DNA of 64,000 nt, from IMG/VR virus record IMGVR_UViG_3300027996_003878, one strand, 5' to 3'. Origin of the DNA: a virus (taxonomy: Duplodnaviria; Caudoviricetes). The stretch's first letter is position 1. Every line of letters begins with the position of its first letter. The notes beneath the pieces are model-generated. The model did no database searches. It was given only the letters and a program-made list of their open reading frames with translations, and was not told the DNA's origin. A program made the position numbers and the translations under genes. Shown here one piece after another: positions 3,072-40,518 of the stretch.

Positions 3072-4076
3072 TTAAGCAACAGACTTGTTGCCACGAGCAA
3101 CACCACGCGGGTTGGTGATGCCAATGCCAATGATTTCGCTGACAACCCAGCCAAGCTTAAGCTGCTTAGGCTCATCAGCCGGAAGGACCTCAATGTCCTG
3201 ACGAACAGGCATAACACCAACGAACTCAGGGTCAGCGCAAGCGTAAACAGTTCCAGGCGGAACAATCTTGCTAACCATGATGTCAGAGCCCCAAACGTGA
3301 GCATAAAGGCCGGTCTGAAGGATCTCGCGCTGCGTGACAGGATCAACCTCGCCACCGCCGGCACCCTGGCCACCGCCGGAAGCCCAGTTAAGGATATCAG
3401 TGAACTCGTTGATGTTCATGAAGAACTTGCTGGTGACAAGGTCCCAGCGATCAACTTGCTGCTTAAGCTCAACAAGATCGCGCTTAAGCATACCACCGTC
3501 AGCGATATCCTGACTTGTATTCTCAACGTCAGCAGCTGCATCGATAGCGGCGAAAACGTTTGCATCCTCTTGTGCCATGATCTCCTGACGAGCCTTCTGA
3601 ACTGCGCGGTCGATGACGTTAAAGCGGCGACGCTTGACCTCAGCGATACGAACAGTGGGGTTTGAGTAAAGCTCAAACTCAGGAACCGTAACACGATCAC
3701 CGAAAACTCGGCTCTCAGGACCCGTGCCATTGCTTGAAACAACAACAGCCGCAACATCAATATCACGATCATAAACAGGAAGGGCGCCTTGCGGTAACGG
3801 ATCGACTACAAGTGCTCTACGAGCAATTCCCTGATAATCTAGGTTTCGACGGATGGGGTTAGCCATTGCCTGAGCAAGAGCAACCTTGCCCTCATGAGTC
3901 ATGATAGCGCGTGAAATTAACTCATCACGCTGCTCAGCATTAAGGCCAGGCTGACCTGCGAGTGCAAGATTTGAGGGCGCATTGTCCTCTAAAATTGCAG
4001 CATACTTAGTAAGAGTCGTAAGCGCGTCCTTTAATGAGGAAGCGTTTAACTCTCCTTTTGAATTAAACATTGACAT
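3072..4076 (-). CDS. Major capsid protein (HK97 fold)
   Basis: 334 aa. Pattern PIRRNLDYQGIARRAL.VDPLPQGALPVYDRD...FEL.SNPTV.I.EVK.RRFNVIDR...ARQEIMAQED is typical of large-phage MCPs. High-GC codons, followed by a strong terminator and preceded by a cement gene. Confidence 0.88.
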   Translation of the reverse strand: MSMFNSKGELNASSLKDALTTLTKYAAILEDNAPSNLALAGQPGLNAEQRDELISRAIMTHEGKVALAQAMANPIRRNLDYQGIARRALVVDPLPQGALPVYDRDIDVAAVVVSSNGTGPESRVFGDRVTVPEFELYSNPTVRIAEVKRRRFNVIDRAVQKARQEIMAQEDANVFAAIDAAADVENTSQDIADGGMLKRDLVELKQQVDRWDLVTSKFFMNINEFTDILNWASGGGQGAGGGEVDPVTQREILQTGLYAHVWGSDIMVSKIVPPGTVYACADPEFVGVMPVRQDIEVLPADEPKQLKLGWVVSEIIGIGITNPRGVARGNKSVA

Positions 4077-5008: not shown

Positions 5009-5027
5009 TTATGAGCGTTTATTAGTA
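5009..5027 (-). promoter_or_regulatory. Putative late promoter for the cement-MCP unit
   Basis: Minus strand TACTAATAAACGCTCATAA. The 14-mer TTACTAATAAACGC recurs exactly at 11747..11760. Confidence 0.45.
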
Positions 5028-5070
5028 ATAACAACAGCTTTCAATATCAAATTGAATTTATTATATAAAT

Positions 5071-6609
5071 TTATACGTTATTGGCTCTAGCATCTTGTAG
5101 ATGCTTATCAATTTTATTAGAATTTTTTCTTGCATTTTCAATACTGGGAGAAATATCCAATGATAAATTAAACTTATTATTAGCCAAATTAACTGCTTTG
5201 CTAGTTATTGGACCCCAAATCCCATCTACCACCAATCCTCTTGAAGAGTCTGCATCCAGCTTACGAAGAGCCCCCTGCATTCTCCTTATTTCAGGCCCTC
5301 TAGGCATTACAGATCTTTGAGAAACCATTCGAGGGGGCGCAGGAGAGGGCGCAGACTGAGATTCTCCATATTGGGTATATCCAGGAACACGACTAATAGC
5401 TGCATACATCTTAGGATTATTTAAAAGATCTTTAAGAGTAGTTTCTTTAACAGTTCCATCAGGATACTTTACAGTAACTTTTTTTGAAGCATATCTAGCG
5501 CCATGACTATAATCATAATACATATCAGTATCATGATACGTTTGCATTGACGGCTGTAAAGGCTGCCCTTGCGGCGTTTTCCAGCCTGATAGCCTCAACT
5601 TATTAGGCGAATCTGTTGCATGCTGCTTAGTAACAGTTTTCATATGCCCTGCTACTAAATCATTACCACTTCCCACTTGCTGATTGATAGTTCTATTGTA
5701 TTGATCAATCGCATCAGGGTGCATCATTATGGGGTAGCCATCTTTAGTTTTAGATACAACATCTTGAGCTGAATATCTTTGACCGTCAATAGTGACACCG
5801 CTTCCGCTAAGAGGCTTGGGCTGAAGCTTCCTTGCCTTTTCCCATATATCATCTACCATTTTATCAGTGGGAATTTCCATATCAAATTCTTGCCCAATTT
5901 TCTCTGCTGTAACTCCTGATAACTGCAATCTTTTTCTTCCATCTGGAGTATCAATATAAAGAAAATCAGGAGTTACATGATAGGTAATTTCACTACCGCC
6001 AGGTCCTTTAGTTGTAACTGGCACAAGCTGCTCTTTAAGCTGTCTTTGAACTTGATCGCGAATAGCTTTATTTTTTAATACAGAATTAACAATAAAGTCT
6101 TCTCTATTTTTGCCCGGAGGTATTTTACCAAGATACTTGGAAAACTCCTTTGGCGTTAATTGAGAAAGCTCTGGTTTTTTTGGCTCTGGCGCCTTTGGTT
6201 TGGCTTCAGGTTCATCTTTTTCTTGCATATCTGGCTGCTGGGCGCTTGGCTGCTTTAAAAGCACCTTTTCCTCAGTCTCGTCGCTAAACCAACCTGTTAC
6301 AGTATCTTTTATACCTTCCCACCAACCATCGTTAACATCAACGTGATTCACATCTTTACCCGAAGCCGGAGGAAGAGTTACAATATAAGAAGGGAATCTT
6401 GGTCTTTCAAAGTCTCTAGAGTCAGCAGGAACGACCATTTGCATAGCAGACGGATGATCCCATCTCGTGGGCATATCCATAAATTGAGATTTTCTCTCAA
6501 TTTTTTCATAAGCGGCACGAAGCAAAGCCTTTCGACTACAAGAGCAAAATTTATACTTCTCTAGGAGCCTGCTTAGCGCTATCTTTCTTATCTCGGATTT
6601 CACCTTCAA
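5071..6609 (-). CDS. Putative virion protein: uncharacterised AGH..K/DYSHG domain plus C-terminal peptidoglycan-binding domain
   Basis: Central IPTDKMVDDIW...LVAGHMK...GWKTPQGQPLQP...H...YYDYSHG. C-terminal GPEIRRMQGAL...VDGIWGPITSKAV (PG_binding_1-like). Confidence 0.6.
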   Translation of the reverse strand: MKVKSEIRKIALSRLLEKYKFCSCSRKALLRAAYEKIERKSQFMDMPTRWDHPSAMQMVVPADSRDFERPRFPSYIVTLPPASGKDVNHVDVNDGWWEGIKDTVTGWFSDETEEKVLLKQPSAQQPDMQEKDEPEAKPKAPEPKKPELSQLTPKEFSKYLGKIPPGKNREDFIVNSVLKNKAIRDQVQRQLKEQLVPVTTKGPGGSEITYHVTPDFLYIDTPDGRKRLQLSGVTAEKIGQEFDMEIPTDKMVDDIWEKARKLQPKPLSGSGVTIDGQRYSAQDVVSKTKDGYPIMMHPDAIDQYNRTINQQVGSGNDLVAGHMKTVTKQHATDSPNKLRLSGWKTPQGQPLQPSMQTYHDTDMYYDYSHGARYASKKVTVKYPDGTVKETTLKDLLNNPKMYAAISRVPGYTQYGESQSAPSPAPPRMVSQRSVMPRGPEIRRMQGALRKLDADSSRGLVVDGIWGPITSKAVNLANNKFNLSLDISPSIENARKNSNKIDKHLQDARANNV

Positions 6610-7860
6610 CTAGCCTATAAGCCTTTTAGTTGCTGCATCAAAGTCTGATCCCTTCATCTTCTTCTTTTTATCTTCTTCTTTTTTATCTTCTTGCATACTT
6701 TTTTTCAAAGAAGATGTATTTTCTTTTAATTGTTTCAATTGTTTTTTTAGCTCACTTAGTCCGGCCGATTCGCGCAGCATTGACTTTTTCAATGGACCAC
6801 AAGCGTTTACAATATCATCAAGCTCAGTGCCGGGAAGCAAAAAACTTGTAAGCATTTTCCACTTACTATCTTCATGTTCTTTAATCATTCCTTCTACAAT
6901 TTGACAGTACGCGCTTAGCTTTTTTTGATTTGACGTTAAATTATCTTTATAAACATCAAAAAACTTCAAAAGATCATCTACTACCTTTGGATCAACTAAA
7001 ACAGTAATAGCTCTTTCGTCTTGACTTTGCAAAGACGCCCCCATTGCATTTCGAAGCTTCATTCGCATACGCGAAGCCTCTTCAGCCTGCTCTTTAATAG
7101 AGCCAGCAAGCTCAGAAAAATCAAACAAGGCTTGCTTATCATCATCACTTAATTTTGTTATCTCAATGTATTCAGTAAGCTTGTCATCAATCTCTTCCTT
7201 CAGCTCAGTGGCATCTTTAATTACCCCTGCACTAAGCTTAAGGGTATTTTCAACAGCTGATTTTGCGCTCCATAAGCCAAACAGCCAAGCGCCAAGTCTA
7301 GTCGCTGCGCCAGTTCTTACCGCCCACTTTGGCACTTCTTTGAGAGCCACTCCTGTGAAAAGCCTGGCTAAGAGGCTCAGCAGCGCTCCCGGATTAGCTT
7401 GCTTCGTTATTTTATTTGACTTGACACGAGCTAATTTGGAAGCGCAATCATCTGCGAGCTTCATCATTTCATATTCATCATTACGATCTAAAAGAAAAGC
7501 TGACTTTATTAACTCGTTCATTAAATCATTCTTAGCATGAACATAACGACGCTGAACAAGCAAACCATCATTAGGCTTAGATACAATGTCGCAAATGATA
7601 TTTTGACGCTCTAAATTGTTTTCAACCAAACCATTCACTCTATCATAAGCGGGCGCAACAATAGCAGGATTTGGATGAGCTTGCTCCATGATATGCTCCT
7701 CCTCTCCATTAGGTTGAACTCCATAAAGAGCTTCTACAGTAGAAATTTCATACCGAGATGTCTCTTCATCATAAGCTTTTTTAACATTGCTTGTATCAAT
7801 AAGACCTTGCTCTTTCGCAATTTCAGTATAAAGTTCAAAAATTTCACTATAAGGATTCAT
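6610..7860 (-). CDS. Hypothetical head-region protein with AHP module, hydrophobic segment and coiled coil
   Basis: 416 aa, operonic packing. IMEQAHP motif; KKA, KLA and KQA sites; amphipathic NPGALLSLLARLFTG...LGAWLFGLW. Confidence 0.75.
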   Translation of the reverse strand: MNPYSEIFELYTEIAKEQGLIDTSNVKKAYDEETSRYEISTVEALYGVQPNGEEEHIMEQAHPNPAIVAPAYDRVNGLVENNLERQNIICDIVSKPNDGLLVQRRYVHAKNDLMNELIKSAFLLDRNDEYEMMKLADDCASKLARVKSNKITKQANPGALLSLLARLFTGVALKEVPKWAVRTGAATRLGAWLFGLWSAKSAVENTLKLSAGVIKDATELKEEIDDKLTEYIEITKLSDDDKQALFDFSELAGSIKEQAEEASRMRMKLRNAMGASLQSQDERAITVLVDPKVVDDLLKFFDVYKDNLTSNQKKLSAYCQIVEGMIKEHEDSKWKMLTSFLLPGTELDDIVNACGPLKKSMLRESAGLSELKKQLKQLKENTSSLKKSMQEDKKEEDKKKKMKGSDFDAATKRLIG

Positions 7861-7880
7861 TTTATTTCCTACTATTGTTA

Positions 7881-8981
7881 TTATTTTATATTTCTTAAAA
7901 CTTCTTCTGCCGCATCTTCAGCAAATTCATCTACAACCTGCTTTATTGAATTAAATCCAATAGGCATCTCAATTTCCGTACTATTTATCCTATTTGCCCT
8001 GTCAAGTTTAGATGCAATATCTTTATAAGATGCAACGTTATTTATATTCCAATCATTCATATGACGCGCAAATGCCGGATAAACCGATTGAAGCCAATTC
8101 AGAAGGGTTTCATCTACATCGTTATAGATTAGCTCTACAGCCCAAGCCGTTTCACTATTATTGGTAAATCTTTTTTGACCCCAACCAGTTGTCCGAAGAA
8201 TATCTTGAACATCATGTTGTGTGATCTTTTTTGTCGGGTCGTAGCCTGCACCAGGAACTAAAGTTGCACCAGGAGCTAACGTCTTACCGGGGGCAGGTTT
8301 GTCTTTTTTGAAATAATCATACAGCTTAATTACACCTACTGTTCCGACTACAACGCCTGATAAAATCAAAGCTGTTTTTAGCGCCCATGCAAGAGCGCCT
8401 GCAAAAAACAATCTAATCTTACCAGCATTTCTTGGCCTCATTGAGGGGCCAAAAAGACCCTTAAGCCGAGCCCAGAGACCTTTGCGTCCTTGTTTAGTAA
8501 TTACTAAACTAAGGTCACTTGTACTAGCTGCACTTATAGATCCAGCGCCAGCAAAAGCAGCATCTCTTGCTGCTTGATCAAGCTCAGATCTTGAAATCTT
8601 TTCACCTTTTTCGAGCTTTGGCCCTAGTCTACCAACGAAACTATTGTAAACTTTTAAAAAATTTACGCCGAGCCCTTTTTCAACAGCAAGGTACAATCCA
8701 AATAATAAAGGATTTAATCTAAAAAGAAGAGTAGGCGCCATCAAACTAATTAAACTAACTACTGGCTGATCTTTATTTACATTATTTTTAATATGATTTG
8801 ATATCGCGCTTTTCCAAGAATCAAGGCGAAGTTTGTCCGTCAAACTAGCATTCTTTACAAGATAGTAATCTTGTAAAGAATCAAAATCATTTACAACAGC
8901 CAAAGCTGCACACTTAAGCTCTGACTTTCTGGATTTGACGATATTAGACATAAAAATAAAATTAAACAGCTTTATCCACAA
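7881..8981 (-). CDS. Hypothetical head-region protein with hydrophobic helices (probable start about 8951, MSNIVK)
   Basis: 366 aa ORF. Hydrophobic stretches LLFRLNPLLFGLYLAV and LFFAGALAWALKTALILSGVVVGTVGVI. Confidence 0.75.
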   Translation of the reverse strand: MWIKLFNFIFMSNIVKSRKSELKCAALAVVNDFDSLQDYYLVKNASLTDKLRLDSWKSAISNHIKNNVNKDQPVVSLISLMAPTLLFRLNPLLFGLYLAVEKGLGVNFLKVYNSFVGRLGPKLEKGEKISRSELDQAARDAAFAGAGSISAASTSDLSLVITKQGRKGLWARLKGLFGPSMRPRNAGKIRLFFAGALAWALKTALILSGVVVGTVGVIKLYDYFKKDKPAPGKTLAPGATLVPGAGYDPTKKITQHDVQDILRTTGWGQKRFTNNSETAWAVELIYNDVDETLLNWLQSVYPAFARHMNDWNINNVASYKDIASKLDRANRINSTEIEMPIGFNSIKQVVDEFAEDAAEEVLRNIK

Positions 8982-8996
8982 ATTTTTGAATTGTCA

Positions 8997-11375
8997 CTAC
9001 GACCAGGGTTGTCGTGTAAGTCCATTGGCTTTCATTTGCGACAAAGCACTGTTTTTTAATCGCGACAGACGACCAATAACTCTACTAAGCCGGTTACTGT
9101 GCTCCCTCATCAACTTCCTATCCTCTTTACGATCTTGATAACCACCTATTGCGTTTTCTAAATCCTTCATAAGTTTTTCTGTATATTCTGGAAGTTGAGG
9201 TAAGTTTTTAGAGTTGCCAAGATACATCTGAGCAAAATCTCCAGGCCGACTTATCCCACCTGCAATATCACTTGATGCTATTTCTCTACGAGGTCCAAAC
9301 CTCTTATAAATGCCTTTACTATACTCATCAGCGACATCCAGAAGGATATTACCGTCCCTATCAATAGGGAACTCTCTAGGCTTTTCGCGCCTTTGCTCGC
9401 GGCCTTGGCGGCGCTTAAACCAACGGCTTAGATCTGTTTCACTTTTTTTTCCCGACTTTATACCGAGCAAAAGCTTCACAAGCTCCAGAACAGCAGCTTC
9501 ACTTAAACCAAGCTTTTCACGCGCCTTTTCAACTGCCTGTCGCGTTTTTGGGTCAAGGCCTGCTCCAGGTGCTCCAGGTACTCCAGGTGCTGCGGGTCTC
9601 GGTCGAACCTCTGTAGCTCCCGGCCCTTCGGTAAGCTCTTTTAAAGGAATAACCAAATCGTGTAGCAAGAGGCCTTTGGGGTATTGCTCTTTATATTGCT
9701 CTTTATACCGCTTGTGGTAAAGTTTTAATGTTTCAAATATCTTATTTTTGATTCTAACAACATCATTTATATAGTTTGGATTTTTTCTTTGCCTAGCAGC
9801 ATTTTCAAGCGATACGAGCATCCACGTCAGATCCTGTGCACTAACTCCATCCAACCCGCCGGGGGTTATATGGTCTATGCTTATTAAGCCGCGTGAAATC
9901 AGCCAATCCATAAAAGATTTCACAGAAGCTAAATCTTTAGGATATATTGGCTTACCTCCAAACATATCATACCACTGCTCTTTCACCTCTAGTTTTTTCA
10001 GAAACTCCTTAAGGTGATCAGTATTAACTTTTGCATTCTGTAATGAAGGTGTTGTTTTTAAATCAAGATCTTTATGAGCATCTTTAGCCTCACGGATAGC
10101 AGTGGATGTTTTTGGCCCCCAAATCCCATCGTCTTTAATTTCACGAACACGCGGCACTTTAACTAAAAGCTGCTGCATCTCTTTGATAGCCTGCCCTCTA
10201 GGCATTGAAGGTCCCTTTTTGGCGGCAGGAGCGGCAGGGGCGGCGCCAGTTCCGCCAGGGCGAGGTGTAAGCAGAGCCTCTTTAATATTAATACCTTTCC
10301 AAAGTTCCTTTGTTTTTTTGATATAATCATCGAGGCCTTCTACATTTTTCAGCTCCTCCGCGCCTGGATCACCTTTTGTAATAGCCTTTTTTACTTCAGA
10401 GAATTTATAATATTCTCCAATTTTTTTAAGGCTTTCGAGGAGCCCTTTCATCGTTTTAAACCCAGACTCAGCTGTATAATCTTTAATTTTAATAGCATTT
10501 GGAATTGCCTTATTTTTTAAAAAATCCCGAAAATTATTAACGAGCCCCTCAGGTACTCTCATCTCACCGGGCTTAATCTCTTTTTTTGCAGCTGGGGCTT
10601 TTGCTGGACCTTCGGTTCTGCCGTAAACTCGACCGAGCCAGGCGCTGAAGGACCTCTTTACTTCGCTTTCATTTCTATATTTTGTGCCAACTAGTTCTTG
10701 TGCTAATCTGGCATGCTCCTCTTTATCCTTAGACATTTGATTTGCCGTTCGGAGATAATCCGAGGGGCTCTTCCCGGATTTCGCTGGCCTCTCAGTCATG
10801 TCTATCGTAAACATTCCCTCGTAGTTACTGTCACCACCCGGAAGAGATTGACGTTTTCCCGGATCAAGCCTAAAAACTGGCACATAAAGATTGTCTACAA
10901 ATGCTTCTACAACTTGCTTGGCAATATCTGCAGTCTTCTGCTGCGCCTTTTTGCTCAACTTAGCTGAAGCATACTTTCCCGTAGGTTGCTTTTTAACAAT
11001 CTCCTGGATCTTCTTACTTGCTGAAGGATGCGTGTACATAATGCCAAACTCAGAAGGACCAACCTTTACATCTCCTTCGGGATGAGCTTCGTCCATCATC
11101 TCTTCGCCGGCATCTTTTAAGTCTTTTTCAGCTCTCTTTAAGCGAGCCAACTTTTCATCAAGACTATTCGCCTCTTTGTTAAATCCCTTTGAGCGAAGTC
11201 CTTCTGACAAACGAACAATATTCAAATACAAATCATCGGTAGGATCAAATGAAGCTTTGGCGGCTTGCTTTACTACTTCCTGCTTCTTTGGCGTAACCAT
11301 CCCCTTGTCTGAGGCAACTTTAGCCAAGCTACGCATCACTTCACTGTCATAAAAATCAACATGCTTTAAAGTCAT
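8997..11375 (-). CDS. Large putative internal virion protein with AHP module and peptidoglycan-binding domain
   Basis: 792 aa. MMDEAHPEG motif; GQAIKEMQQLL...DDGIWGPKTSTAI PG-binding motif; Pro/Ala linkers. Confidence 0.75.
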   Translation of the reverse strand: MTLKHVDFYDSEVMRSLAKVASDKGMVTPKKQEVVKQAAKASFDPTDDLYLNIVRLSEGLRSKGFNKEANSLDEKLARLKRAEKDLKDAGEEMMDEAHPEGDVKVGPSEFGIMYTHPSASKKIQEIVKKQPTGKYASAKLSKKAQQKTADIAKQVVEAFVDNLYVPVFRLDPGKRQSLPGGDSNYEGMFTIDMTERPAKSGKSPSDYLRTANQMSKDKEEHARLAQELVGTKYRNESEVKRSFSAWLGRVYGRTEGPAKAPAAKKEIKPGEMRVPEGLVNNFRDFLKNKAIPNAIKIKDYTAESGFKTMKGLLESLKKIGEYYKFSEVKKAITKGDPGAEELKNVEGLDDYIKKTKELWKGINIKEALLTPRPGGTGAAPAAPAAKKGPSMPRGQAIKEMQQLLVKVPRVREIKDDGIWGPKTSTAIREAKDAHKDLDLKTTPSLQNAKVNTDHLKEFLKKLEVKEQWYDMFGGKPIYPKDLASVKSFMDWLISRGLISIDHITPGGLDGVSAQDLTWMLVSLENAARQRKNPNYINDVVRIKNKIFETLKLYHKRYKEQYKEQYPKGLLLHDLVIPLKELTEGPGATEVRPRPAAPGVPGAPGAGLDPKTRQAVEKAREKLGLSEAAVLELVKLLLGIKSGKKSETDLSRWFKRRQGREQRREKPREFPIDRDGNILLDVADEYSKGIYKRFGPRREIASSDIAGGISRPGDFAQMYLGNSKNLPQLPEYTEKLMKDLENAIGGYQDRKEDRKLMREHSNRLSRVIGRLSRLKNSALSQMKANGLTRQPWS

Positions 11376-15124: not shown

Positions 15125-18100
15125 CTAGTAACGCTTGTTTGCGAAAGCTCTCTCAAGCTCAGCAACCAAATCAGACTTTTCTGCTTCAGGCGCCGGCAGC
15201 ACAACCTCACCCGTGCCAATCATTCCAACCTGCGGAATTGAAGCTGACTTTTGCATCGGCTGACGCTCAGCCCAACGCTTCATGCTATTAAAGCCCTCGT
15301 CATTCCACTTCATAATTTCGCTAACTTGCTCGTTAACCGCAGAACGGTCATTGTTAAGCATGCCACGGCGAACCATGTCGTAAGCTAGCTCATAAGCTCT
15401 AGAGATCTTCACCTTATAAGTTTCTTTTTCCTCTGCAACCTTCTTTGCGTCATATTCCTTAAGAAGTTCATCAGCGAATTCTTTTCCACCGTCTTTTGCC
15501 TGGCTAAGATAATCTTTCCAGTACGCAACAGCCGCTTCATCTAGACCCTGGCTGATTAAAGCCGGGAAGTCATTGGCTGGGTCAATACGGCCAGCCAAAA
15601 CCAACTTCTGAATGTCTTCAGCCATTTTACGGATACGAGGAGGGGCTTGAGCCACTTCCTTCATAGCCGCATGTTGCTCCTTAAGATCTTCGACTCTAGC
15701 CAAGTTGCCCTCTGCCGGCATATCAAGCTCAACAGTTGTGCCGCCTTCAGGATGAGCCTTGTCAAGCATGTCACTGTAATGAAGGCCCTCTTGAGCTAAC
15801 TTGGCGCGATAGAGAGCGCGACCCTCTTTCGTTGTAAGGTCAGGCTCATCAGAGGCCATGGTTGAGAGTTCACTCTTAACAGCGTCCATAACTAGTTTCT
15901 CCAAGTCAAAATCATTAACATCATCATGATCGCCATCATGCATCATGCCGTGGTCATGCATCATGCCGTGGTCATGCGTCATGTCATCCGACTCAAAAAC
16001 CTCTTTTGTTTTCTCTTCCTCTTCTTCTGTCTGGACCTTATCAAACGGGGAGGGCGGTAGCGGCTTTTGATCCTCGGTCAAAACTTTTGCAAGCTCGGCC
16101 CCGGCATCTTGAGCCTTCTTTTCCAAAGCAGCAGTGCCCTTTGCATATTTAACAAATGAATCCATCAACTTGTAGCAGTCAGCAAACGTCTTTTTCGTAT
16201 CAGCAACTGCATCCGAAACAAGACCATTGACATACTCTGTATCCGTTGCACTTAGCTTTGCCTTGTTCGCATAAATATGGGAAGCCAAGGAAAGCTCTTC
16301 AAAATGTTCCTTCAAATCAGCCTGAGCTTGCTTCATACCAACGATAAGGGCAGTGCCAAGCTTTTGCTTCATATTAACCAAGGAAGCCGTGGCAGGGGAA
16401 AGCTCCGCTAATTGAGCCATTTCATCCTCGGCCTCTTCGCCTTCCTTCTCTTCTTCAAGAGCTTCAACTGCCTCATCGATATCATCAAGAAGGCCTTTTG
16501 CCTGCTCAACGAGATCCGGCAAGAGCTTAGCCGGATCGGCGCCCTCTAGCTCATCAATAGCTGCTTCAGGCGTAGGCGCCTCTTCAGCCATCTCAGGGGC
16601 CTCAGCGGCGGGCTGCTCAGGAACCTCTTCAGGAGCCATCTCCATCTCACCCTCTAATCCAGCTTCAGGCATTGCCAACTCAGCCTCAGGCATCTCCTCA
16701 GCAGGCTGCGCTCCTTTGAAAAGAGCCGCAGCCTTAGCAAATCCGCTAGTACGAATGGTGCTCAGAATCTTTCGGCCAAACTGCTTAGTTGCAATTGAGT
16801 CATAAAGAACATCGGCCTTGTTGCCAGCAAGCTCAGCGACAGTAGCTGTGAGGATTAGCTTGTCATCTGCAAAAACTTGCCAACAAGATGCTGACGGATT
16901 ATCGGTACCATCAGCGGATGCTGCTTTAACAAACTTCGCGCTAAGTTTTGCGCGTAATAGCTTTTCTTTTTTCTCTAGATCGCCAGTGTATAGACCATCG
17001 GTATCTCCAACCTCCGGGAATGGACCTGAACCATTCATCTGACGATCCTCATCACGATCAAAAGGCTCTTTTGGATAAACCTGCGGCTCATTGGGGCCGC
17101 CGCCGCCTTGGTAATAAGCTTCTTTTTTAGCAAGATTATTTTTAGCCCTTTCAAGCGCCGCCTGACGACGAAGAGCGCGTCGCTCTTGCTCCGCCATACG
17201 CTGAAGCTCGCGCTTCTTCTCCGCATCTCCAGGGTGCAAACCATCAACCGGACCAGTACCATCGCCAAGACCCGTCATTTGCTTGTCCTCGGTATCGCGA
17301 ATCGCCTCCGCATCACCCATGGGCTCGTAACGAGGCCGTCCTGGAGTGGGTTCATTTACACCACCACCACCTTGAAAGTAAGCTTTCTTATTTGTCATAT
17401 TGTTTTCCTCACTAGTATATAACTTGCCAAAATCCTGCTTTAATTCGTTTAAATTTGTAAGAAGAGAATTAATCGCACTCGAAATTTTAAAATATTTTGA
17501 ATCACGATTACTTAAAGAAGCAATTTTATTACCAGAATTATTTAATTCATCTTCTTGTAATTTGCATTCTTTATCATCCTCATTTTCCTGAAGTTGCTCA
17601 AGCTCACAAGTATCAGAGCTGTCATCCTGTTCCGCCTTCTCTTCCGCTTCGGCTTGTTCGGCTTCTTCTGCTCTTTCCTTGTACTCTTCTGCTTGTAGTG
17701 CGCTTAGCTTATCTGAGGCTTCATCTAATTTATGATAAGCATCATCAAAGCCCTCAAGAAGGTCGCGCAAATCTTTTTTCTTAGGCCTTTCTTCCTCAAG
17801 AAGACCTTCAAAAGCGTGAACTCCATCTCTCATAGATAACAAAGTGTCACGCAATGCCCCCAACAAGGCATCCTCTGAACCCTCGGCATCTTTCTCTTCG
17901 GCCTCTAGGTCAGAATCCTCGTGAGCGCTCTTTAAGAAAGCCTCTTTTGAGTCTATGTATTGAGCAATGCTATTAGCAGCAGCTACAATATGCCTAATCT
18001 TAGCGCGAGGATCTGCCCCACTTACTACAATTGAAAGTTCAATCGGATTCAAATCCACATTTATTTCACCATATGTAGTTTTACCTCTCATATGATTACA

Positions 18101-18724
18101 AAACTCACTTTCAACCGTAGCAACCTGACCACAGTCAAAACAAATTGCCTTGCCTACAGCGGTACCCATAGAGACTGACGCAGCATAACCGGTAGAAACT
18201 TTACGCGCCAAATCAGGATAATTCTTTTTGTCCAGAGCGCACAGCGCAATCACTCGCTTATTGGGATAATCATAATAGGTGTCAACAATAACACCACGAA
18301 TCATATCCACAGAGCTAGACTTATGATCCAAACAAAGAGGCTTACCAACCCACTTCTTGTGAGCCTTTATAAGCTCCTCTTCAGGAAAGATATCTGAATT
18401 ACTATTACGATAAGGCTTAATATTTGAATCGCTACAAACCCATCTCCATGAGCCATTGTCTTTTTTCCACTCTACAGTAACGTCGTTTCCAGTGGCATCT
18501 TTTTTTAGATTTGAATTGTCATCTAAAAGAGAGGCTTCTGCGGCATGCATCATAATTGCTGAAAAATACAAAAAATCATCAGCTTTTGGAGCTATAGTCT
18601 TTAACTCTGCCGCGACTTTTTTAAACCGCTCCAAAATAGAAGAATCAGACATCATGCTAACTGCTGACTGAATATTAGCAGTCGTAATTACTGTTGCTTC
18701 ACCTAACTTAATAATAGTTGACAT
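15125..18724 (-). CDS. Prohead maturation protease fused to a long acidic scaffold (1199 aa)
   Basis: N-terminal HK97/assemblin-type signature: GKPLCLDH (His), SVSMG (Ser), PIELSIVVSGADP, with a CxxC..C.H insert. About 940 aa of acidic coiled coil follow. Located between portal and MCP. Confidence 0.8.
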   Translation of the reverse strand: MSTIIKLGEATVITTANIQSAVSMMSDSSILERFKKVAAELKTIAPKADDFLYFSAIMMHAAEASLLDDNSNLKKDATGNDVTVEWKKDNGSWRWVCSDSNIKPYRNSNSDIFPEEELIKAHKKWVGKPLCLDHKSSSVDMIRGVIVDTYYDYPNKRVIALCALDKKNYPDLARKVSTGYAASVSMGTAVGKAICFDCGQVATVESEFCNHMRGKTTYGEINVDLNPIELSIVVSGADPRAKIRHIVAAANSIAQYIDSKEAFLKSAHEDSDLEAEEKDAEGSEDALLGALRDTLLSMRDGVHAFEGLLEEERPKKKDLRDLLEGFDDAYHKLDEASDKLSALQAEEYKERAEEAEQAEAEEKAEQDDSSDTCELEQLQENEDDKECKLQEDELNNSGNKIASLSNRDSKYFKISSAINSLLTNLNELKQDFGKLYTSEENNMTNKKAYFQGGGGVNEPTPGRPRYEPMGDAEAIRDTEDKQMTGLGDGTGPVDGLHPGDAEKKRELQRMAEQERRALRRQAALERAKNNLAKKEAYYQGGGGPNEPQVYPKEPFDRDEDRQMNGSGPFPEVGDTDGLYTGDLEKKEKLLRAKLSAKFVKAASADGTDNPSASCWQVFADDKLILTATVAELAGNKADVLYDSIATKQFGRKILSTIRTSGFAKAAALFKGAQPAEEMPEAELAMPEAGLEGEMEMAPEEVPEQPAAEAPEMAEEAPTPEAAIDELEGADPAKLLPDLVEQAKGLLDDIDEAVEALEEEKEGEEAEDEMAQLAELSPATASLVNMKQKLGTALIVGMKQAQADLKEHFEELSLASHIYANKAKLSATDTEYVNGLVSDAVADTKKTFADCYKLMDSFVKYAKGTAALEKKAQDAGAELAKVLTEDQKPLPPSPFDKVQTEEEEEKTKEVFESDDMTHDHGMMHDHGMMHDGDHDDVNDFDLEKLVMDAVKSELSTMASDEPDLTTKEGRALYRAKLAQEGLHYSDMLDKAHPEGGTTVELDMPAEGNLARVEDLKEQHAAMKEVAQAPPRIRKMAEDIQKLVLAGRIDPANDFPALISQGLDEAAVAYWKDYLSQAKDGGKEFADELLKEYDAKKVAEEKETYKVKISRAYELAYDMVRRGMLNNDRSAVNEQVSEIMKWNDEGFNSMKRWAERQPMQKSASIPQVGMIGTGEVVLPAPEAEKSDLVAELERAFANKRY
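15937..15972. repeat. Exact 18-bp tandem duplication encoding (DHGMMH)x2
   Basis: catgcatcatgccgtggt x2 within the scaffold gene. Confidence 0.9.
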
Positions 18725-21501: not shown

Positions 21502-23712
21502 TTACTCTTTACATTTTCCTAAATTAAGCGCCAGTGTGAACTTTCGATGGTTCTTCATCAAAGATTCTGCGCTCATTTTTTTTAATGGGACGCTTATCTC
21601 AGGATCTTTGAATACATTAGCTCTCACAAGTGGATGATGGCTAAGCGTTGATTCCATTGAATTTGAAACCATATTACATATCACAGCAATTCCCCTTACT
21701 AGCTCAAACTGCTCTTTGTCAGAATAAACTCTCAGCTCAACATCGCTCTGATCAAAGCCCTCCGACTTAAATATAGAAACTTTAATGCCTGCAAATTTAC
21801 GCAAAATATTTGCAGTTACTCTTGCATATTCTATTTTATCAGCTAGACTTGCATTTTCAGAGGACAACGCAATTAAATAAGAGTCTAGATTTAATTTTTT
21901 ATAGTCAAAATCAAAATTAGAGCTAGCTGATAACAATTTACTAATTGCAGAATCAAGCTCGATGCTATTGACCGGCGCTTCATCTTCTTTATCTAGAACT
22001 TGTTGAGGCGACTGCCTAGCCTTTTTCTTTTCCTCAGCGGAATATTCCGAAGACCAATTTTTAACTGAAAGATGTGGCACATGCTTTTGTGTTTCCAGCT
22101 TGAGATTTAAATGCTCAATTTTTGGAGCTATGTTATTAAAAAAATAAGCATACCTTCCAGTAAGGCCCTTTGCATAGTTTTTAATATTAGCGGTGTAATA
22201 CCCGCCAAGGCCCAAAGATACAGCTGCACTGCTAGGATCGCCTGCTTCAAAGTAGGCCAAGCTTGACTTGTATCTATCCCTACCTAACAGCTTCCAATAA
22301 TGCATCGCCCCCTCTTCAGGAGTTGCGTATGCTCTCCAACGATCTCCAGGAACTTCGAATGGCTTTCCTTCAGGAGTTTTTTCGTAAGCCTTGCTTCTAT
22401 AATAATCACCGCCACTGCTAATCCAGCCTGGCGTTGCCTTTATTCTTCCAATCGCATTATTAGGTAGTACAACCCGGTTGCCGCGTGAGCCATTTTCAAG
22501 CTCGCCTTGAGAATAACCGCCTGCTAATGCCTGTAAAGATGGCTTTTGTCCAAAAGCCATCTCATATCCTTTTGCCAAAATTTCAGCAAACTCTTCTTGG
22601 CTTACTGTTTTATTTTTGTCGTAAGGAACCTCTTTACCCGCAGCATATTTTAATAAATCTCTAAACCTATCGCTAGCATTGACGGTAGCGCCTTTATCCT
22701 CATCGATTATACTTTCCTCTTCTATTGGCTCTTCAAAAGAAGGTTCCTTTGTTTTTTCTAAGAATTGAAAGTCCTCAATATCAGATCTAGCAACAGATAC
22801 CTGGCCTGACTTAGATAAACCTAACGCCTCTGTCTTATCTCTAAGCTTTACCTTTAGTTTAAACCTTAACTTATAGTCATCATAATCTAATTCGATTGGT
22901 TGAGATAAAATTGTCACCAACAAAGAGCCAGGAACAGGCTTTTCGTCCTTTTTCATGAACGTTACTGGCTGTAGCGCCTCTATCTTAATTAAATTACCCT
23001 TAATTATTGCATCGCGTATTGCGTTTACACTATCATTATCAAGATGTTCAATTTTGTAAGGAGCCGGTATGGACTTTTGTATTTGACGTATAAGCGCAGC
23101 TTTATTTGCCTGTGTAAACTTTACTTTTGTAGGCGAATTATAGCTATCTTTAAAGTAAGAGATCTGATCAAGGGGAATATCATAAGATTGATTTATTTTT
23201 AAAAAATTACCAGAAAACTCAAACCCTGGAATGCTTTCTAATGTTTCTTGAGCCTTTTCAGCTGTATTCTGCTCGTCCTTAACTTTAACAGGAACTTTAA
23301 CAGGCGGTTTTTTTGCGGTATATGTAAACGGAACAGAGCTAGGGGCGTCATCAATGTTATCAATAACACTTTCTCCCAATTCTTTCTTTATATCTTCAGC
23401 CTCCGCCGCTGCTTCGCTCAATTCACCTGAAAGTCTTTTAACTTCGCTTAATGCAAAATCATATCCAGCAAGATTACCAGAATCAATATACTTCAATAAT
23501 TGTTTAGTTGCCTTATCCAGCTCTTTTATAATCTTCTCAGTTTTTACTGTCTTGACATTAAGCCTTCTTAAGTCAAATCTAAATTCAGGATCTGTTATCC
23601 AGTTCCATGCCTTTGACAAACTATCAACAATGTCTGCAACTTTAACAACATCATGAGAATCAGCCGCATAAAGCTTTAAAGTATATTTTCTAATATCTGA
23701 CACTTTAGGCAC
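21502..23712 (-). CDS. Putative virion protein with a GH73-like glucosaminidase/muramidase domain
   Basis: SQGELENG (catalytic Glu position), WRAYATPEEGAMHYWKLL and GGYYTA match the FlgJ/GH73 pattern; 736 aa. Confidence 0.7.
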   Translation of the reverse strand: MPKVSDIRKYTLKLYAADSHDVVKVADIVDSLSKAWNWITDPEFRFDLRRLNVKTVKTEKIIKELDKATKQLLKYIDSGNLAGYDFALSEVKRLSGELSEAAAEAEDIKKELGESVIDNIDDAPSSVPFTYTAKKPPVKVPVKVKDEQNTAEKAQETLESIPGFEFSGNFLKINQSYDIPLDQISYFKDSYNSPTKVKFTQANKAALIRQIQKSIPAPYKIEHLDNDSVNAIRDAIIKGNLIKIEALQPVTFMKKDEKPVPGSLLVTILSQPIELDYDDYKLRFKLKVKLRDKTEALGLSKSGQVSVARSDIEDFQFLEKTKEPSFEEPIEEESIIDEDKGATVNASDRFRDLLKYAAGKEVPYDKNKTVSQEEFAEILAKGYEMAFGQKPSLQALAGGYSQGELENGSRGNRVVLPNNAIGRIKATPGWISSGGDYYRSKAYEKTPEGKPFEVPGDRWRAYATPEEGAMHYWKLLGRDRYKSSLAYFEAGDPSSAAVSLGLGGYYTANIKNYAKGLTGRYAYFFNNIAPKIEHLNLKLETQKHVPHLSVKNWSSEYSAEEKKKARQSPQQVLDKEDEAPVNSIELDSAISKLLSASSNFDFDYKKLNLDSYLIALSSENASLADKIEYARVTANILRKFAGIKVSIFKSEGFDQSDVELRVYSDKEQFELVRGIAVICNMVSNSMESTLSHHPLVRANVFKDPEISVPLKKMSAESLMKNHRKFTLALNLGKCKE

Positions 23713-25030
23713 CCAAGAGTCCTTCTGCTATAGCAATTAGCTTTAAACTTGCGACTAAATCTTGATCTTCTATCTGACCAGCTCGCTCTAAAAGCCGCGA
23801 AGCTAGAGCGCGAGATTCACTGCCGTCCGCTATCTTATTTAATCTATAAAACAGACCAGCCGTTGCACTTTCCAAGCCTTCTCCAGCAACAAGAGGCTCT
23901 TTTTTCTCTTCCTTTTCTTCTACCTCTTCCTCTTCAACCAAAATCTCTCCCTCAGAAGACTCTTCATCCACCTTAAACTCACCAGCTGGCGCTATAGAAA
24001 GCTCCTCAGCGCTAGGAGGCGATTCCACCAAAATGGGGACGGGCGGCGGTGGAGGTATAACCGGAAGAGGCTCCGCCTCAATCCTTTCAACTTCTTCCTT
24101 TTGCCTTTGAATTTCTTTTTGCTTTGCCTCTTCGATCTTTTTTTGAGCCTCAGCTTCTGCCCGAGCCTTTTCTTCGGCTTTAGCTTTTTCTTTTCTAGCA
24201 GCCTCTTCAGCCTTCGCTCTCTCTTCTCTAGCAAGCGCCTCAGCTCTAGCCTTCTCCGCTCTAGCCGCCTCTTCAGCTTTAGCCCTCTGCTCTTCCAGTT
24301 GACGCTGGCGCTGCATCTCTATACGAAGCTCTTCCTGCCTTCTCTCTTCTAAAAGATTTTCAACATCTGTTTTCAAATAAGCATCATAAGTTTTGCCCAA
24401 CTGATTCTGAAAATCTTTTTGTTTTTTAGATATCTGGTCTAGTGTATTAACATAATCATATACATCACCACGAGAGCGCGCTTTTCCTAACTCATCCGAG
24501 AGTGCCTGTAATTGTTTTGTAGATACATCCAAAAGCCCCAACAACTGCCTTATAGCAAGTCTTTTTTCTGCCTCATATTTTCTATCTAATTTACGTACAA
24601 GGTACTCTTGCTTCTTTGACTCCCACCAGTCACGCAGCCCGGCCTGCTTTCCCAACCCTTCAAAGATCTGCTTGTCAAACTCCTCAGACACTTCTTTGGT
24701 ACCAATTTCTCGCAATAAATCTTTCCTTAAAGACTTAACCTTGTCACCGCTTGACTGAATCAAATTTAAATTGTTATTTATTTTTGCGAGCAAAATAGCT
24801 ACATCCATGTACCTATTGGCTTTAAAGGCACGCCTAGCTTTTTTTGCCAGCTCTTCTAAATCATTAACCCAATTATCAATATTATCATCAACTTCTCTTA
24901 GCTGAGTCATCAACTCTCGGTAAGCTGGAGAAAATCGCTCAGAAAAAGCCCGACCCCAACCGCTAGGAGTAAGCTTTTCTCTCCACCATGTACCCCTACG
25001 AGCTGCTATTATAAAAATATCTCGATTCAT
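23705..25030 (-). CDS. Coiled-coil head-region protein with TolA-like KAEEAAR repeats and a Pro-rich stretch
   Basis: 441 aa. KAEEAARAEKARAEALAREERAKAEEAARKEKAKAEEKARAE; PVIPPPPPVP. Confidence 0.75.
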   Translation of the reverse strand: MNRDIFIIAARRGTWWREKLTPSGWGRAFSERFSPAYRELMTQLREVDDNIDNWVNDLEELAKKARRAFKANRYMDVAILLAKINNNLNLIQSSGDKVKSLRKDLLREIGTKEVSEEFDKQIFEGLGKQAGLRDWWESKKQEYLVRKLDRKYEAEKRLAIRQLLGLLDVSTKQLQALSDELGKARSRGDVYDYVNTLDQISKKQKDFQNQLGKTYDAYLKTDVENLLEERRQEELRIEMQRQRQLEEQRAKAEEAARAEKARAEALAREERAKAEEAARKEKAKAEEKARAEAEAQKKIEEAKQKEIQRQKEEVERIEAEPLPVIPPPPPVPILVESPPSAEELSIAPAGEFKVDEESSEGEILVEEEEVEEKEEKKEPLVAGEGLESATAGLFYRLNKIADGSESRALASRLLERAGQIEDQDLVASLKLIAIAEGLLGA

Positions 25031-28412: not shown

Positions 28413-29381
28413 TCAAAGACCTACGGCTGCTGGATCTCTTACGATTTCAGGTAAGTCTACGTCTGCCTTTAATGATTTTTCCAATTCAGTCACAACTTGA
28501 TTTAAATCTTTAAAAGATTTCGATTGAGCGGGTTGAAAGCCCGAATTAGGGCCACTTAATCTTGCAACTTTTCTTAACCACTCTTGAACTTCCAGAGCCA
28601 TTAGATAGTTATGAATATTCTTAGAAATATCATTATAAGTTTTGCTTATATATGAATACAGCTTTTCAGCAGCCTTTAAGGCATTCTGCGGTGTGGGATT
28701 CCTTTCAAAATCAGCCTTTGCATTTTGATAATCTGAATTTTGACTCTTCCAACTAGCAAATTCACGCTTCGCTTTCTTAAGCTTCTCTTCTTTGCTTAGC
28801 TCAACTCCCTCTGGCTTGGCTGCTTCTTCAAGCATTCTCGTTAATTTGCCAACCTGAGAATCAAGGGCAGCACCACTCGGCTTTTGATCTACTCTAACTA
28901 CAACAGGCGCAATCTGATGACCAGAACCACCTTCAATGGCCTTTTGCAATTCTTTCACACTGCCTGTCAATTTTCTCAATTTTTCTAATTCATCTTCAGT
29001 ATCATAAGCATCATCTGCCAAATCTTTATCCGGGACATCCAATTTCATCCCTGGATAATATATGCCAAACAATTTTACAAAATCGGAAATGGCTTTTTGC
29101 GTAGCAGGCCCCCACTTACCGTCTTCTACAATCATATCAAGATCACTATCTAAACCGCTAGCAAGGCGATCTTTTACTCTCTTTAGAGCATTAAATGCAC
29201 GTTGAAAATCATAAACATCTCCAAAAGTATATTGTTGCGAAAAAGACCTTAACTCAAACTTTCTAGCAACCTTACTCAATCTGCTTGGAGCGCTTAAGGA
29301 GGCTTTATCTCGACGCCTGCCCTGCTTAAACTCAGCATTATAAATGCTAGCTAATTTTGAAATATCATTTACCAAACTCAT
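28413..29381 (-). CDS. Putative virion protein with a peptidoglycan-binding domain
   Basis: IVEDGKWGPATQKAISDF PG_binding_1-like motif; three K-x-A sites. Confidence 0.65.
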   Translation of the reverse strand: MSLVNDISKLASIYNAEFKQGRRRDKASLSAPSRLSKVARKFELRSFSQQYTFGDVYDFQRAFNALKRVKDRLASGLDSDLDMIVEDGKWGPATQKAISDFVKLFGIYYPGMKLDVPDKDLADDAYDTEDELEKLRKLTGSVKELQKAIEGGSGHQIAPVVVRVDQKPSGAALDSQVGKLTRMLEEAAKPEGVELSKEEKLKKAKREFASWKSQNSDYQNAKADFERNPTPQNALKAAEKLYSYISKTYNDISKNIHNYLMALEVQEWLRKVARLSGPNSGFQPAQSKSFKDLNQVVTELEKSLKADVDLPEIVRDPAAVGL

Positions 29382-40261: not shown

Positions 40262-40462
40262 TCAAGAAAATGAACAACCATCCATTTTTCTCAATAGAGA
40301 TATTACAGGGTCTATTTTATTTTCAACAATAAAATCAAGAGGCGAGCAATAATATAAATCTGGGCTAGGACACATAAGCCAACTTAACATTTCTGTAGGG
40401 CTTTTAAATATTTTATTTAAAAAAGATAAGCAAATAGAAAATTTTTCAATATCTAACTTCAT
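40262..40462 (-). CDS. Orphan Xre/MbcA/ParS antitoxin C-terminal (toxin-binding, DUF2384-like) domain protein
   Basis: IF.....MLSWLMCPSPDLYYCSPLDFI.......VISLLRKMDGCSFS matches the family pattern F.....A..WL..P...L....PL.L.......V..LL.R...G.F. Confidence 0.55.
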   Translation of the reverse strand: MKLDIEKFSICLSFLNKIFKSPTEMLSWLMCPSPDLYYCSPLDFIVENKIDPVISLLRKMDGCSFS

Positions 40463-40518
40463 TTATTTTATAGCTAAAACCCTCTGAATAAATAATGGAG
40501 CATAATAATTATTTTTAT

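Follow-up and report, generated by a model that had tools for sequence, protein, structure and literature searches.

An unnamed domain family with a predicted C-type-lectin/FGE-like fold, joined to a peptidoglycan-binding module in a huge-phage protein

Within a 64,000-nucleotide (nt) stretch of an uncultured Caudoviricetes genome (IMG/VR record IMGVR_UViG_3300027996_003878), referred to here as the window, we studied a minus-strand gene encoding a protein of 512 amino acids (aa) whose central domain, judged from its sequence, belongs to a real, large and undescribed family known from huge phages and at least ten bacterial phyla. The predicted fold of this domain is credibly of the C-type-lectin/FGE type, and towards the C-terminus of the protein it is followed by a divergent peptidoglycan-binding module of the PG_binding_1 family. 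We tentatively read the central domain as a lectin-like module that recognises the cell wall, in a protein probably delivered by the virion; binding and catalysis were weighed about evenly, with the conservative, lectin-like reading narrowly preferred. The gene and the parts of its product are as follows.

5071 to 6609, minus strand: the studied gene, 512 aa, with a TTG start abutting the stop codon of the upstream gene
6556 to 6597, minus strand: N-terminal basic amphipathic motif, S-E-I-R-K-I-A-L-S-R-L-L-E-K
6160 to 6552, minus strand: Pro/Lys/Glu-rich N-terminal region, residues ~20–150, probably disordered (predicted local distance difference test score, pLDDT, of 26–44 in the model)
5356 to 6150, minus strand: central domain of the unnamed family, residues 154–418 (hidden Markov model envelope), with a predicted C-type-lectin/FGE-like core, N-terminal helices and an insertion
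5494 to 5649, minus strand: segment with most of the invariant residues (G321, K324, G342, Q352, H359, D366, Y367 and R372)
5140 to 5307, minus strand: divergent PG_binding_1-like module, residues ~435–490, motif D-G-I-W-G-P-x-T
5086 to 5115, minus strand: C-terminal helix motif K-I-D-K-H-L-Q-D, resembling the tail R-I-D-N-F-L-x-x-I of the phage clade

The initial annotation of this DNA had pointed to an uncharacterised domain at positions 5455–5985, which correspond to residues 209–385; the sequence strings it quoted all lie in the single open reading frame (ORF) at 5071–6609 on the minus strand, and the domain extends more widely, over residues ~154–418. A word-indexed search returned five relatives, and homologues were found at E values of 3e-87 to 2e-33. 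With a family profile built from 43 domain sequences and 8,000 candidates scored, the family comprises at least 4,032 protein clusters at E <= 1e-10, and the only names among the matches listed were 'hypothetical protein' or a sorting-domain label of the type IX secretion system (T9SS). The description of the domain as uncharacterised held, as no Pfam, NCBIfam or PHROG model and no PDB sequence matched it in any of the 43 members, and searching the PDB with the domain by sequence and by profile likewise returned no match. A scan of one genome per species detected the domain in Planctomycetota, Bacteroidota, Polyangiaceae, Verrucomicrobiota, Gemmatimonadota, Obscuribacterales, Paracoccaceae, Bdellovibrio-like lineages and others, which agrees with the distribution given in the initial annotation (myxobacteria, Bacteroidota and Planctomycetota). 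Among viruses, it occurs in uncultured huge phages, with IMG/VR records of which two span 409–433 kb (96–97% complete) and three are fragments (28–49% complete), whilst a tblastn search of two members against 50,697 GenBank phage records gave one match only, to an unannotated 485-kb uncultured phage. Within a midpoint-rooted tree of 166 unique domains, the 512-aa protein fell in a clade of 40 sequences that contained none from a bacterial genome.

Conservation was counted over these 166 sequences, which share ~25% overall identity, using the numbering of the 512-aa protein. K324 and G342 are kept in every sequence (166/166), G321 and an acidic residue at 366 (D/E) in 165/166, H359, Y367 and R372 in 164/166, T248 and Q352 in 163/166, R169 in 159/166 and D215 in 158/166. 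The motifs given for the family at the outset (AGHKKD, YGWH and DYSHG) were correct as a consensus, being A-G-H-K-K-D at 320–325, Y-G-W-H at 341–344 and D-Y-S-H-G at 366–370; the 512-aa protein retains the full invariant set and differs from consensus at D325 (T), Q236 (E) and Y341 (S). The further argument that conserved His, Asp and Ser residues imply catalysis did not hold up in that form, as H322 is present in 71/166 sequences (43%), S368 in 136/166 (82%) and H369 in 131/166 (79%), and the fold is chiefly a ligand-binding scaffold. Conserved cysteines were also sought, and no such column was found among 105 to 166 sequences, the most frequent Cys, at position 244, occurring in about half. 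The spacing H-x6-D (H359 to D366) raised an LAS/M15-type zinc peptidase as a candidate, which we rejected because the possible third His residues are kept in 43% and 79% of sequences only and the structural matches are all of the lectin/FGE type.

A model computed from six sequences was poor outside the domain, and a model of the domain from 43 sequences reached a pLDDT of 95 and a predicted template-modelling (pTM) score of 0.92. Foldseek, the structural comparison proposed in the initial annotation, gave no significant match; the C-type-lectin/FGE fold emerged from exhaustive structural alignment of the domain model against 48,161 chains, followed by a second look. The best 50 rows were all C-type-lectin/FGE-sulfatase-fold proteins and, in the second look, so was every row down to Z 4.3, with one unrelated chain at Z 4.1. 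Leading matches were the Bd2740 tip (Z 8.2, 105/111 residues aligned, root-mean-square deviation (rmsd) 2.2 Å), CarF (5aoh; Z 8.1, or 8.7 in the second look, 147 aligned residues), FGE (Z 7.8, 147 aligned), TvpA and PorK (both Z 7.8), pFGE (Z 7.4–7.5), Mtd (Z 7.3–7.5) and EgtB (Z 7.3), and the lower-ranked ones included PvdO, intimin, C-type lectin domains (CTLDs) and Link modules. The match spans model residues ~31–230; beyond it lie the N-terminal helices and ~35 residues at the C-terminus. Because the list is uniform, the predicted fold assignment is credible although each Z score is middling. From the aligned ranges we infer that the invariant segment 342–372 falls where the variable receptor-binding region of Mtd and the active-site cysteines of FGE lie, on the functional face of the fold.

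Two groups of known proteins are closest in structure. With proteins of the FGE-sulfatase/C-type-lectin fold (CarF 5aoh, human FGE 1y1h, pFGE 1y4j, the EgtB C-domain, PvdO, CalU17 and PorK) it shares fold class, size and loop elaboration, 140–170 residues superposing at Z 7–8.7 and rmsd 3.5–5.6 Å. However, the FGE-sulfatase model PF03781 has no match in the window protein (E <= 1) or in the 43 members (E <= 0.01), profile–profile comparison (hhalign) with seven genuine PF03781 proteins gave a probability of 0.1, and whereas FGE has a catalytic cysteine pair, the unnamed domain has no conserved pair, an invariant K, Q, H, D/E, Y and R set of its own and an N-terminal helical part. The second group, comprising Bordetella phage Mtd, Treponema TvpA, Bdellovibrio Bd2740 and intimin/invasin tips, has the fold in common at Z 6.2–8.2. 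Bd2740, Mtd and intimin are adhesin tips, and domains of the Mtd/TvpA/Bd2740/intimin type sit distally on fibres or immunoglobulin (Ig) stalks in phages and predators (PMC10769870). In Mtd the segment concerned is hypervariable, whereas its counterpart by aligned range in the unnamed domain is invariant; unlike Mtd-type tips, moreover, the 512-aa protein is not a tail fibre, and in the other phage loci fetched the domain forms a stand-alone protein of 240–460 aa. A target of a diversity-generating retroelement, of the Mtd/TvpA type, was also considered and rejected, the equivalent segment being invariant and no direct repeat in the 64-kb window involving the gene. Canonical CTLDs match the fold at Z 4–5.5, and their EPN/QPD and WND motifs and disulfides could not be recognised at the level of the sequence alignment. 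C-type lectins such as RegIII-gamma bind the glycan of peptidoglycan and, together with HIP/PAP and Link modules, set a precedent for this fold binding chains that contain N-acetylglucosamine, including murein (PMC7794044), although RegIII-gamma and HIP/PAP are animal proteins of about half the size of the domain and have disulfides.

The C-terminal module that had been called peptidoglycan-binding from the letters alone proved real, though divergent. Pfam PG_binding_1 (PF01471) aligns with residues 437–482 at E 8e-4 and 20 bits, under the cut-off of 23, over profile positions 1–43 of 57, and the core motif D-G-x-[FW]-G-x-x-T is present as D-G-I-W-G-P-I-T. Two further copies in the window carry it as D-G-[IK]-W-G-P-x-T.

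9996 to 10226, minus strand: paralogous PG_binding_1-like module in a 792-aa protein (gene 8997–11375), 39% identity over 72 aa, E 4e-12
28989 to 29219, minus strand: third PG_binding_1-like copy, in a 322-aa protein (gene 28413–29381), with the core motif

A profile made from the three window copies matched the 7rum endolysin (E 1e-8), 4xxt (3e-4) and 1lbu (6e-3) in the PDB, as well as 9h68, 4lpq and 5nm7; the solved proteins matched include the D-Ala-D-Ala carboxypeptidase 1lbu, SleC and a YkuD transpeptidase, with PG_binding_1 as the common element. On these sequence comparisons the C-terminal module is accepted as a divergent PG_binding_1. The 39% identity with the module of the 792-aa protein suggests that it was copied within the phage genome. 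The fusion itself is recent and particular to this phage, since the closest relatives (P0003–P0005, 62–63% identity) stop right after the central domain and lack the module. At their N-termini, P0003–P0005 have a hydrophobic segment, possibly signal or lipoprotein-like, and then a helical motif, L-A-N-E-L-D-x-R-G-L, unlike the N-terminus of the 512-aa protein.

Relatives outside this phage place the domain in varied company. Bacterial members have signal peptides and are mostly a lone domain (270–300 aa) or the domain with a T9SS sorting tail (~375–400 aa), with a longer layout of ~700 aa that runs from the domain through fn3 and another unnamed domain to a T9SS tail. A fusion of GHL10 with the domain occurs in P0077, and the GHL10 family includes the Clostridioides difficile lytic transglycosylase Cwp19 (PMC6016235). 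On a 113-kb high-GC (guanine plus cytosine) contig (L052:7607-11518), a protein of 1,304 aa without a signal peptide combines Amidase_3 (E 4e-40), a weak alpha/beta-hydrolase part, DUF2272, which is grouped with NlpC/P60-CHAP amidases (PMC10318531), and the domain; it could be a delivered multi-enzyme wall toxin. The domain also stands at the extreme C-terminus of a GH16/SKN1 fusion, is joined to a weak alpha/beta-hydrolase N-terminal part in planctomycete proteins of ~600 aa, and is found in giant Ig-repeat proteins and as the tip on Ig/fn3 stalks whose anchor is a T9SS sorting domain; its position in different proteins is N-terminal, internal or C-terminal. Since it accompanies at least four hydrolase classes as well as Ig/fn3 stalks, the domain can be likened to carbohydrate-binding modules, and its fold, its adhesin-like structural neighbours, its companionship with four hydrolase classes and its capping of Ig/fn3 stalks in any position together suggest binding. 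Three murein-directed associations (PG_binding_1, Amidase_3 with DUF2272, and GHL10) support a cell-wall target. The link to peptidoglycan drawn in the initial annotation therefore stands, whereas the new enzyme it proposed is not established.

On the lectin-like reading, the 512-aa product would be a late phage protein, probably packaged in the virion, that makes contact with the cell wall of the host. Its five parts are the conserved N-terminal amphipathic motif, ~130 probably disordered residues, a domain of ~260 residues, the PG_binding_1 module and, at the C-terminus, a short helix. A polar pocket (K324, Q352, H359, D/E366, Y367 and R372), strictly conserved and probably on the ligand-binding face of the fold, would recognise a conserved cell-wall glycan, most likely peptidoglycan, and in this phage the domain and PG_binding_1 would together grip the murein layer. 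The analysis demonstrates the gene, its family and fold, the conserved residues, the PG_binding_1-like module, the place in the head module and the fusions of relatives, while the ligand, the location of the pocket, packaging in the virion and the absence of catalysis are inferred.

The same observations can be read as those of an enzyme, an alternative that we regard as nearly as likely, in which the domain is catalytic, of a new kind, and attacks peptidoglycan or a wall polymer attached to it in the manner of a hydrolase, lytic transglycosylase or lyase. H359, D/E366 and Y367 would do the chemistry, K324, R372 and Q352 would keep an acidic or amide group in place, and PG_binding_1 would be the wall-binding partner, making the 512-aa protein a virion-associated lysin and the stand-alone phage forms endolysin-like. 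The near-absolute retention of K324, H359, Y367, R372, Q352, T248 and the acidic residue of position 366 in phages and in more than 10 phyla is in keeping with this, as is the fact that FGE-type proteins of the same fold are true enzymes. The order domain, linker and PG_binding_1 is that of modular lysins, of which the 7rum endolysin likewise pairs the module with a second globular domain; phiKZ gp144 is another modular lysin with PG_binding_1. The wall enzyme T7 gp16 is delivered from the virion, and like virion-delivered wall enzymes the 512-aa protein is encoded in a structural module, although its partner domain lies outside all known lysin families. The same direction is indicated by the lone secreted forms that are common in bacteria, by multi-enzyme proteins in which the domain stands beside other wall hydrolases, and by the 512-aa protein having no other catalytic domain.

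Phage-clade members, moreover, have no signal peptides and often have a Pro/Lys-rich linker after the domain; many (for example L008:9644-10309 and L003:9509-9958) then continue into an accessory module of ~90 aa (G-P-P-x-G-Y...E-P-H...K-G-V-S-V-Y), and a C-terminal amphipathic helix, R-I-D-N-F-L-x-x-I, is conserved among them. In the 512-aa protein PG_binding_1 occupies the position of that accessory module and K-I-D-K-H-L that of the helix. PDB and Atlas searches with the E-P-H...K-G-V-S-V-Y module gave no lead.

Against catalysis, we know of no peptidoglycan hydrolase with the C-type-lectin/FGE fold. The fold recovered is not a known peptidoglycan-hydrolase fold, and the enzyme proposal of the initial annotation is neither refuted nor established. 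Structural searches for the central domain listed lectin/FGE folds only, no catalytic family (lysozyme, amidase, peptidase or transglycosylase) matched it in Pfam, NCBIfam, PHROGs or PDB sequences, and the two PHROG endolysin families that match the 512-aa protein do so in its PG-binding part only. The domain keeps company with four unrelated hydrolase classes and caps Ig/fn3 stalks, as binding modules do, and the clade of the 512-aa protein has T at D325, which is 87% conserved, and E at Q236. Among ORFs of >= 100 aa, the neighbours of the phage gene pairs included nothing holin-like. A bolder form of the proposal, which we consider unlikely, is that the family is a new class of wall-active enzymes on a C-type-lectin/FGE-like scaffold with an invariant K-Q-H-(D/E)-Y-R active site, used in phage lysins (virion-delivered in the present case) and against cell walls by T9SS-secreting and predatory bacteria.

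Several observations nevertheless weigh against the lectin-like reading. Five to eight polar residues are conserved at 98–100% in 166 sequences despite ~25% identity, a pattern seen more often in active sites than in binding modules. If the domain merely binds, the 512-aa protein consists of two binding modules and no catalytic one, whereas the phage forms without a signal peptide look like a catalytic domain, a linker and an accessory module, and the commonest architectures of the family are the lone secreted domain and the domain with a T9SS tail. Foldseek found nothing significant against the PDB (with two models) or the BFVD viral models, structural Z scores of 7–9 are middling, and the placement of the pocket follows from aligned ranges alone. 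To our knowledge GH16 is not a peptidoglycan enzyme, and the ligand could therefore be another glycan. Finally, huge-phage homologues lie among DNA-metabolism genes, and so packaging in the virion is not a property of the family.

The question of the ligand leads to an explanation that we judge improbable, namely that the domain recognises or modifies a target other than peptidoglycan (a capsular, lipopolysaccharide or algal glycan, or a surface protein) and that its murein fusions are incidental. The GH16/SKN1 fusion and the giant Ig-repeat, adhesin-like carriers of the domain would fit, as would the binding of proteins by its structural neighbours Mtd and intimin and the gene company it keeps in some bacteria. 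In eight proteobacterial, Vicinamibacteria and Bdellovibrio-like loci (L084, L087, L090, L103, L107, L112, L114 and L117), the domain gene lies near one for a secreted protein of ~590–650 aa; in 7/8 (not L087) it is also beside one for a secreted FGE-sulfatase-family protein of ~330 aa, and several add a HAD-UbiA prenyltransferase and an NAD-dependent epimerase, a neighbourhood that looks like an envelope-glycan cluster. Kinship between the domain and the neighbouring FGE-sulfatase proteins was considered and rejected, as no profile relationship was found. Yet the three murein links are independent of one another, and a pocket invariant over phages and many phyla argues for a universal rather than a strain-specific ligand.

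Returning to the lectin-like reading, its second element, packaging and delivery by the virion, is probable from gene position alone. Nearly every gene of the window is on the minus strand, and the studied gene is flanked by two genes of head formation.

3072 to 4076, minus strand: major head protein (phrog_2522, E 7e-79)
15125 to 18724, minus strand: 1,199-aa protein whose N-terminal part is like a head-maturation protease (phrog_18299, E 2e-13)

Because of these flanking genes, the studied gene is placed in the head module of an uncultured huge phage of ~296 kb, its protein cluster being found also on a 296-kb contig. Four genes run in one direction between the protease-like gene and that for the major head protein, and the studied gene comes last; the three upstream of it encode 416, 366 and 792 aa, the 792-aa product bearing the same PG-binding module, and on the downstream side of the studied gene one 225-aa gene separates it from the major head gene. 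The protein would probably be cargo, as would the products of the other three genes that lie between the protease/scaffold gene and the major capsid gene. The same position, together with the long disordered N-terminal region, could instead denote a purely structural head component (decoration, scaffold-like or inner-body) with no wall role in infection, which we think very improbable, given that the family is mostly bacterial and secreted, that the gene lies outside head modules in other phages and that a PG-binding module would then serve no role.

In other huge phages the domain gene is often one of a tandem pair of paralogues among DNA-metabolism genes, outside the head module. Such pairs occur in the phage fragments L002, L003, L005, L008 and L009 (at about 7,800–10,300 in each): one copy belongs to the phage clade, its partner, probably the first gene, groups with bacterial sequences, and the pairs run opposite to the flanking genes for a phrog_9582 dehydrogenase, thymidylate synthase and a DNA polymerase exonuclease. 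No homologues of other window genes were found in the related phage loci, which thus show no shared synteny, and a search for one endolysin family in five related phage records gave no match, three of those records being only 28–49% complete.

At the N-terminus, a GTG two codons downstream of the TTG is the start used in database record P0002. Several phage-clade homologues begin with F-R-K-L-x-L-x-K-I-A, the counterpart of the amphipathic motif of the studied gene, and because this N-terminal motif is common to several homologues the upstream TTG start is probably real. The Pro/Lys/Glu-rich region that follows is missing in most family members.

Other features were recorded in the window and among the relatives. 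Directly downstream of the studied gene, a 47-nt AT-rich intergenic motif (5021–5067) recurs with 72% identity 35 kb away (40426–40472); it may serve the 225-aa and capsid genes, which it precedes, as a phage promoter or regulatory site. The genes at 6610, 8997 and 15125 share the motif [IM]-[ML]-[DE]-x-A-H-P, for which the studied gene has a loose counterpart, R-W-D-H-P...V-V-P-A, at residues ~47–54 (6446–6470). A 441-aa gene (23705–25030) contains three imperfect repeats with 33-nt spacing at 24174–24293, probably encoding a repetitive, helical stretch rich in Ala, Glu, Lys and Arg, and the 736-aa gene at 21502–23712 has no PDB sequence match. The 'middle' domain of the ~700-aa Bacteroidota proteins (P0007, residues ~300–620; V-N-G-F-D-R...G-E-E-S...S-G-S-E-I-x-W-D-L) also occurs in many proteins of 800–950 aa and is very widespread, without a Pfam model.

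Overall, the superfold itself is known, and what is new is a large family that has been undescribed. Its fusions to PG_binding_1, a muramoyl-alanine amidase and GHL10 give the whole family a concrete question, whether the domain binds or cuts peptidoglycan. A binding domain would offer a new wall-targeting module with possible use in engineered lysins or wall probes, and a cutting one a new lysin fold. For the uncultured 296-kb phage, the head module gains a candidate for a cargo protein that engages the wall.

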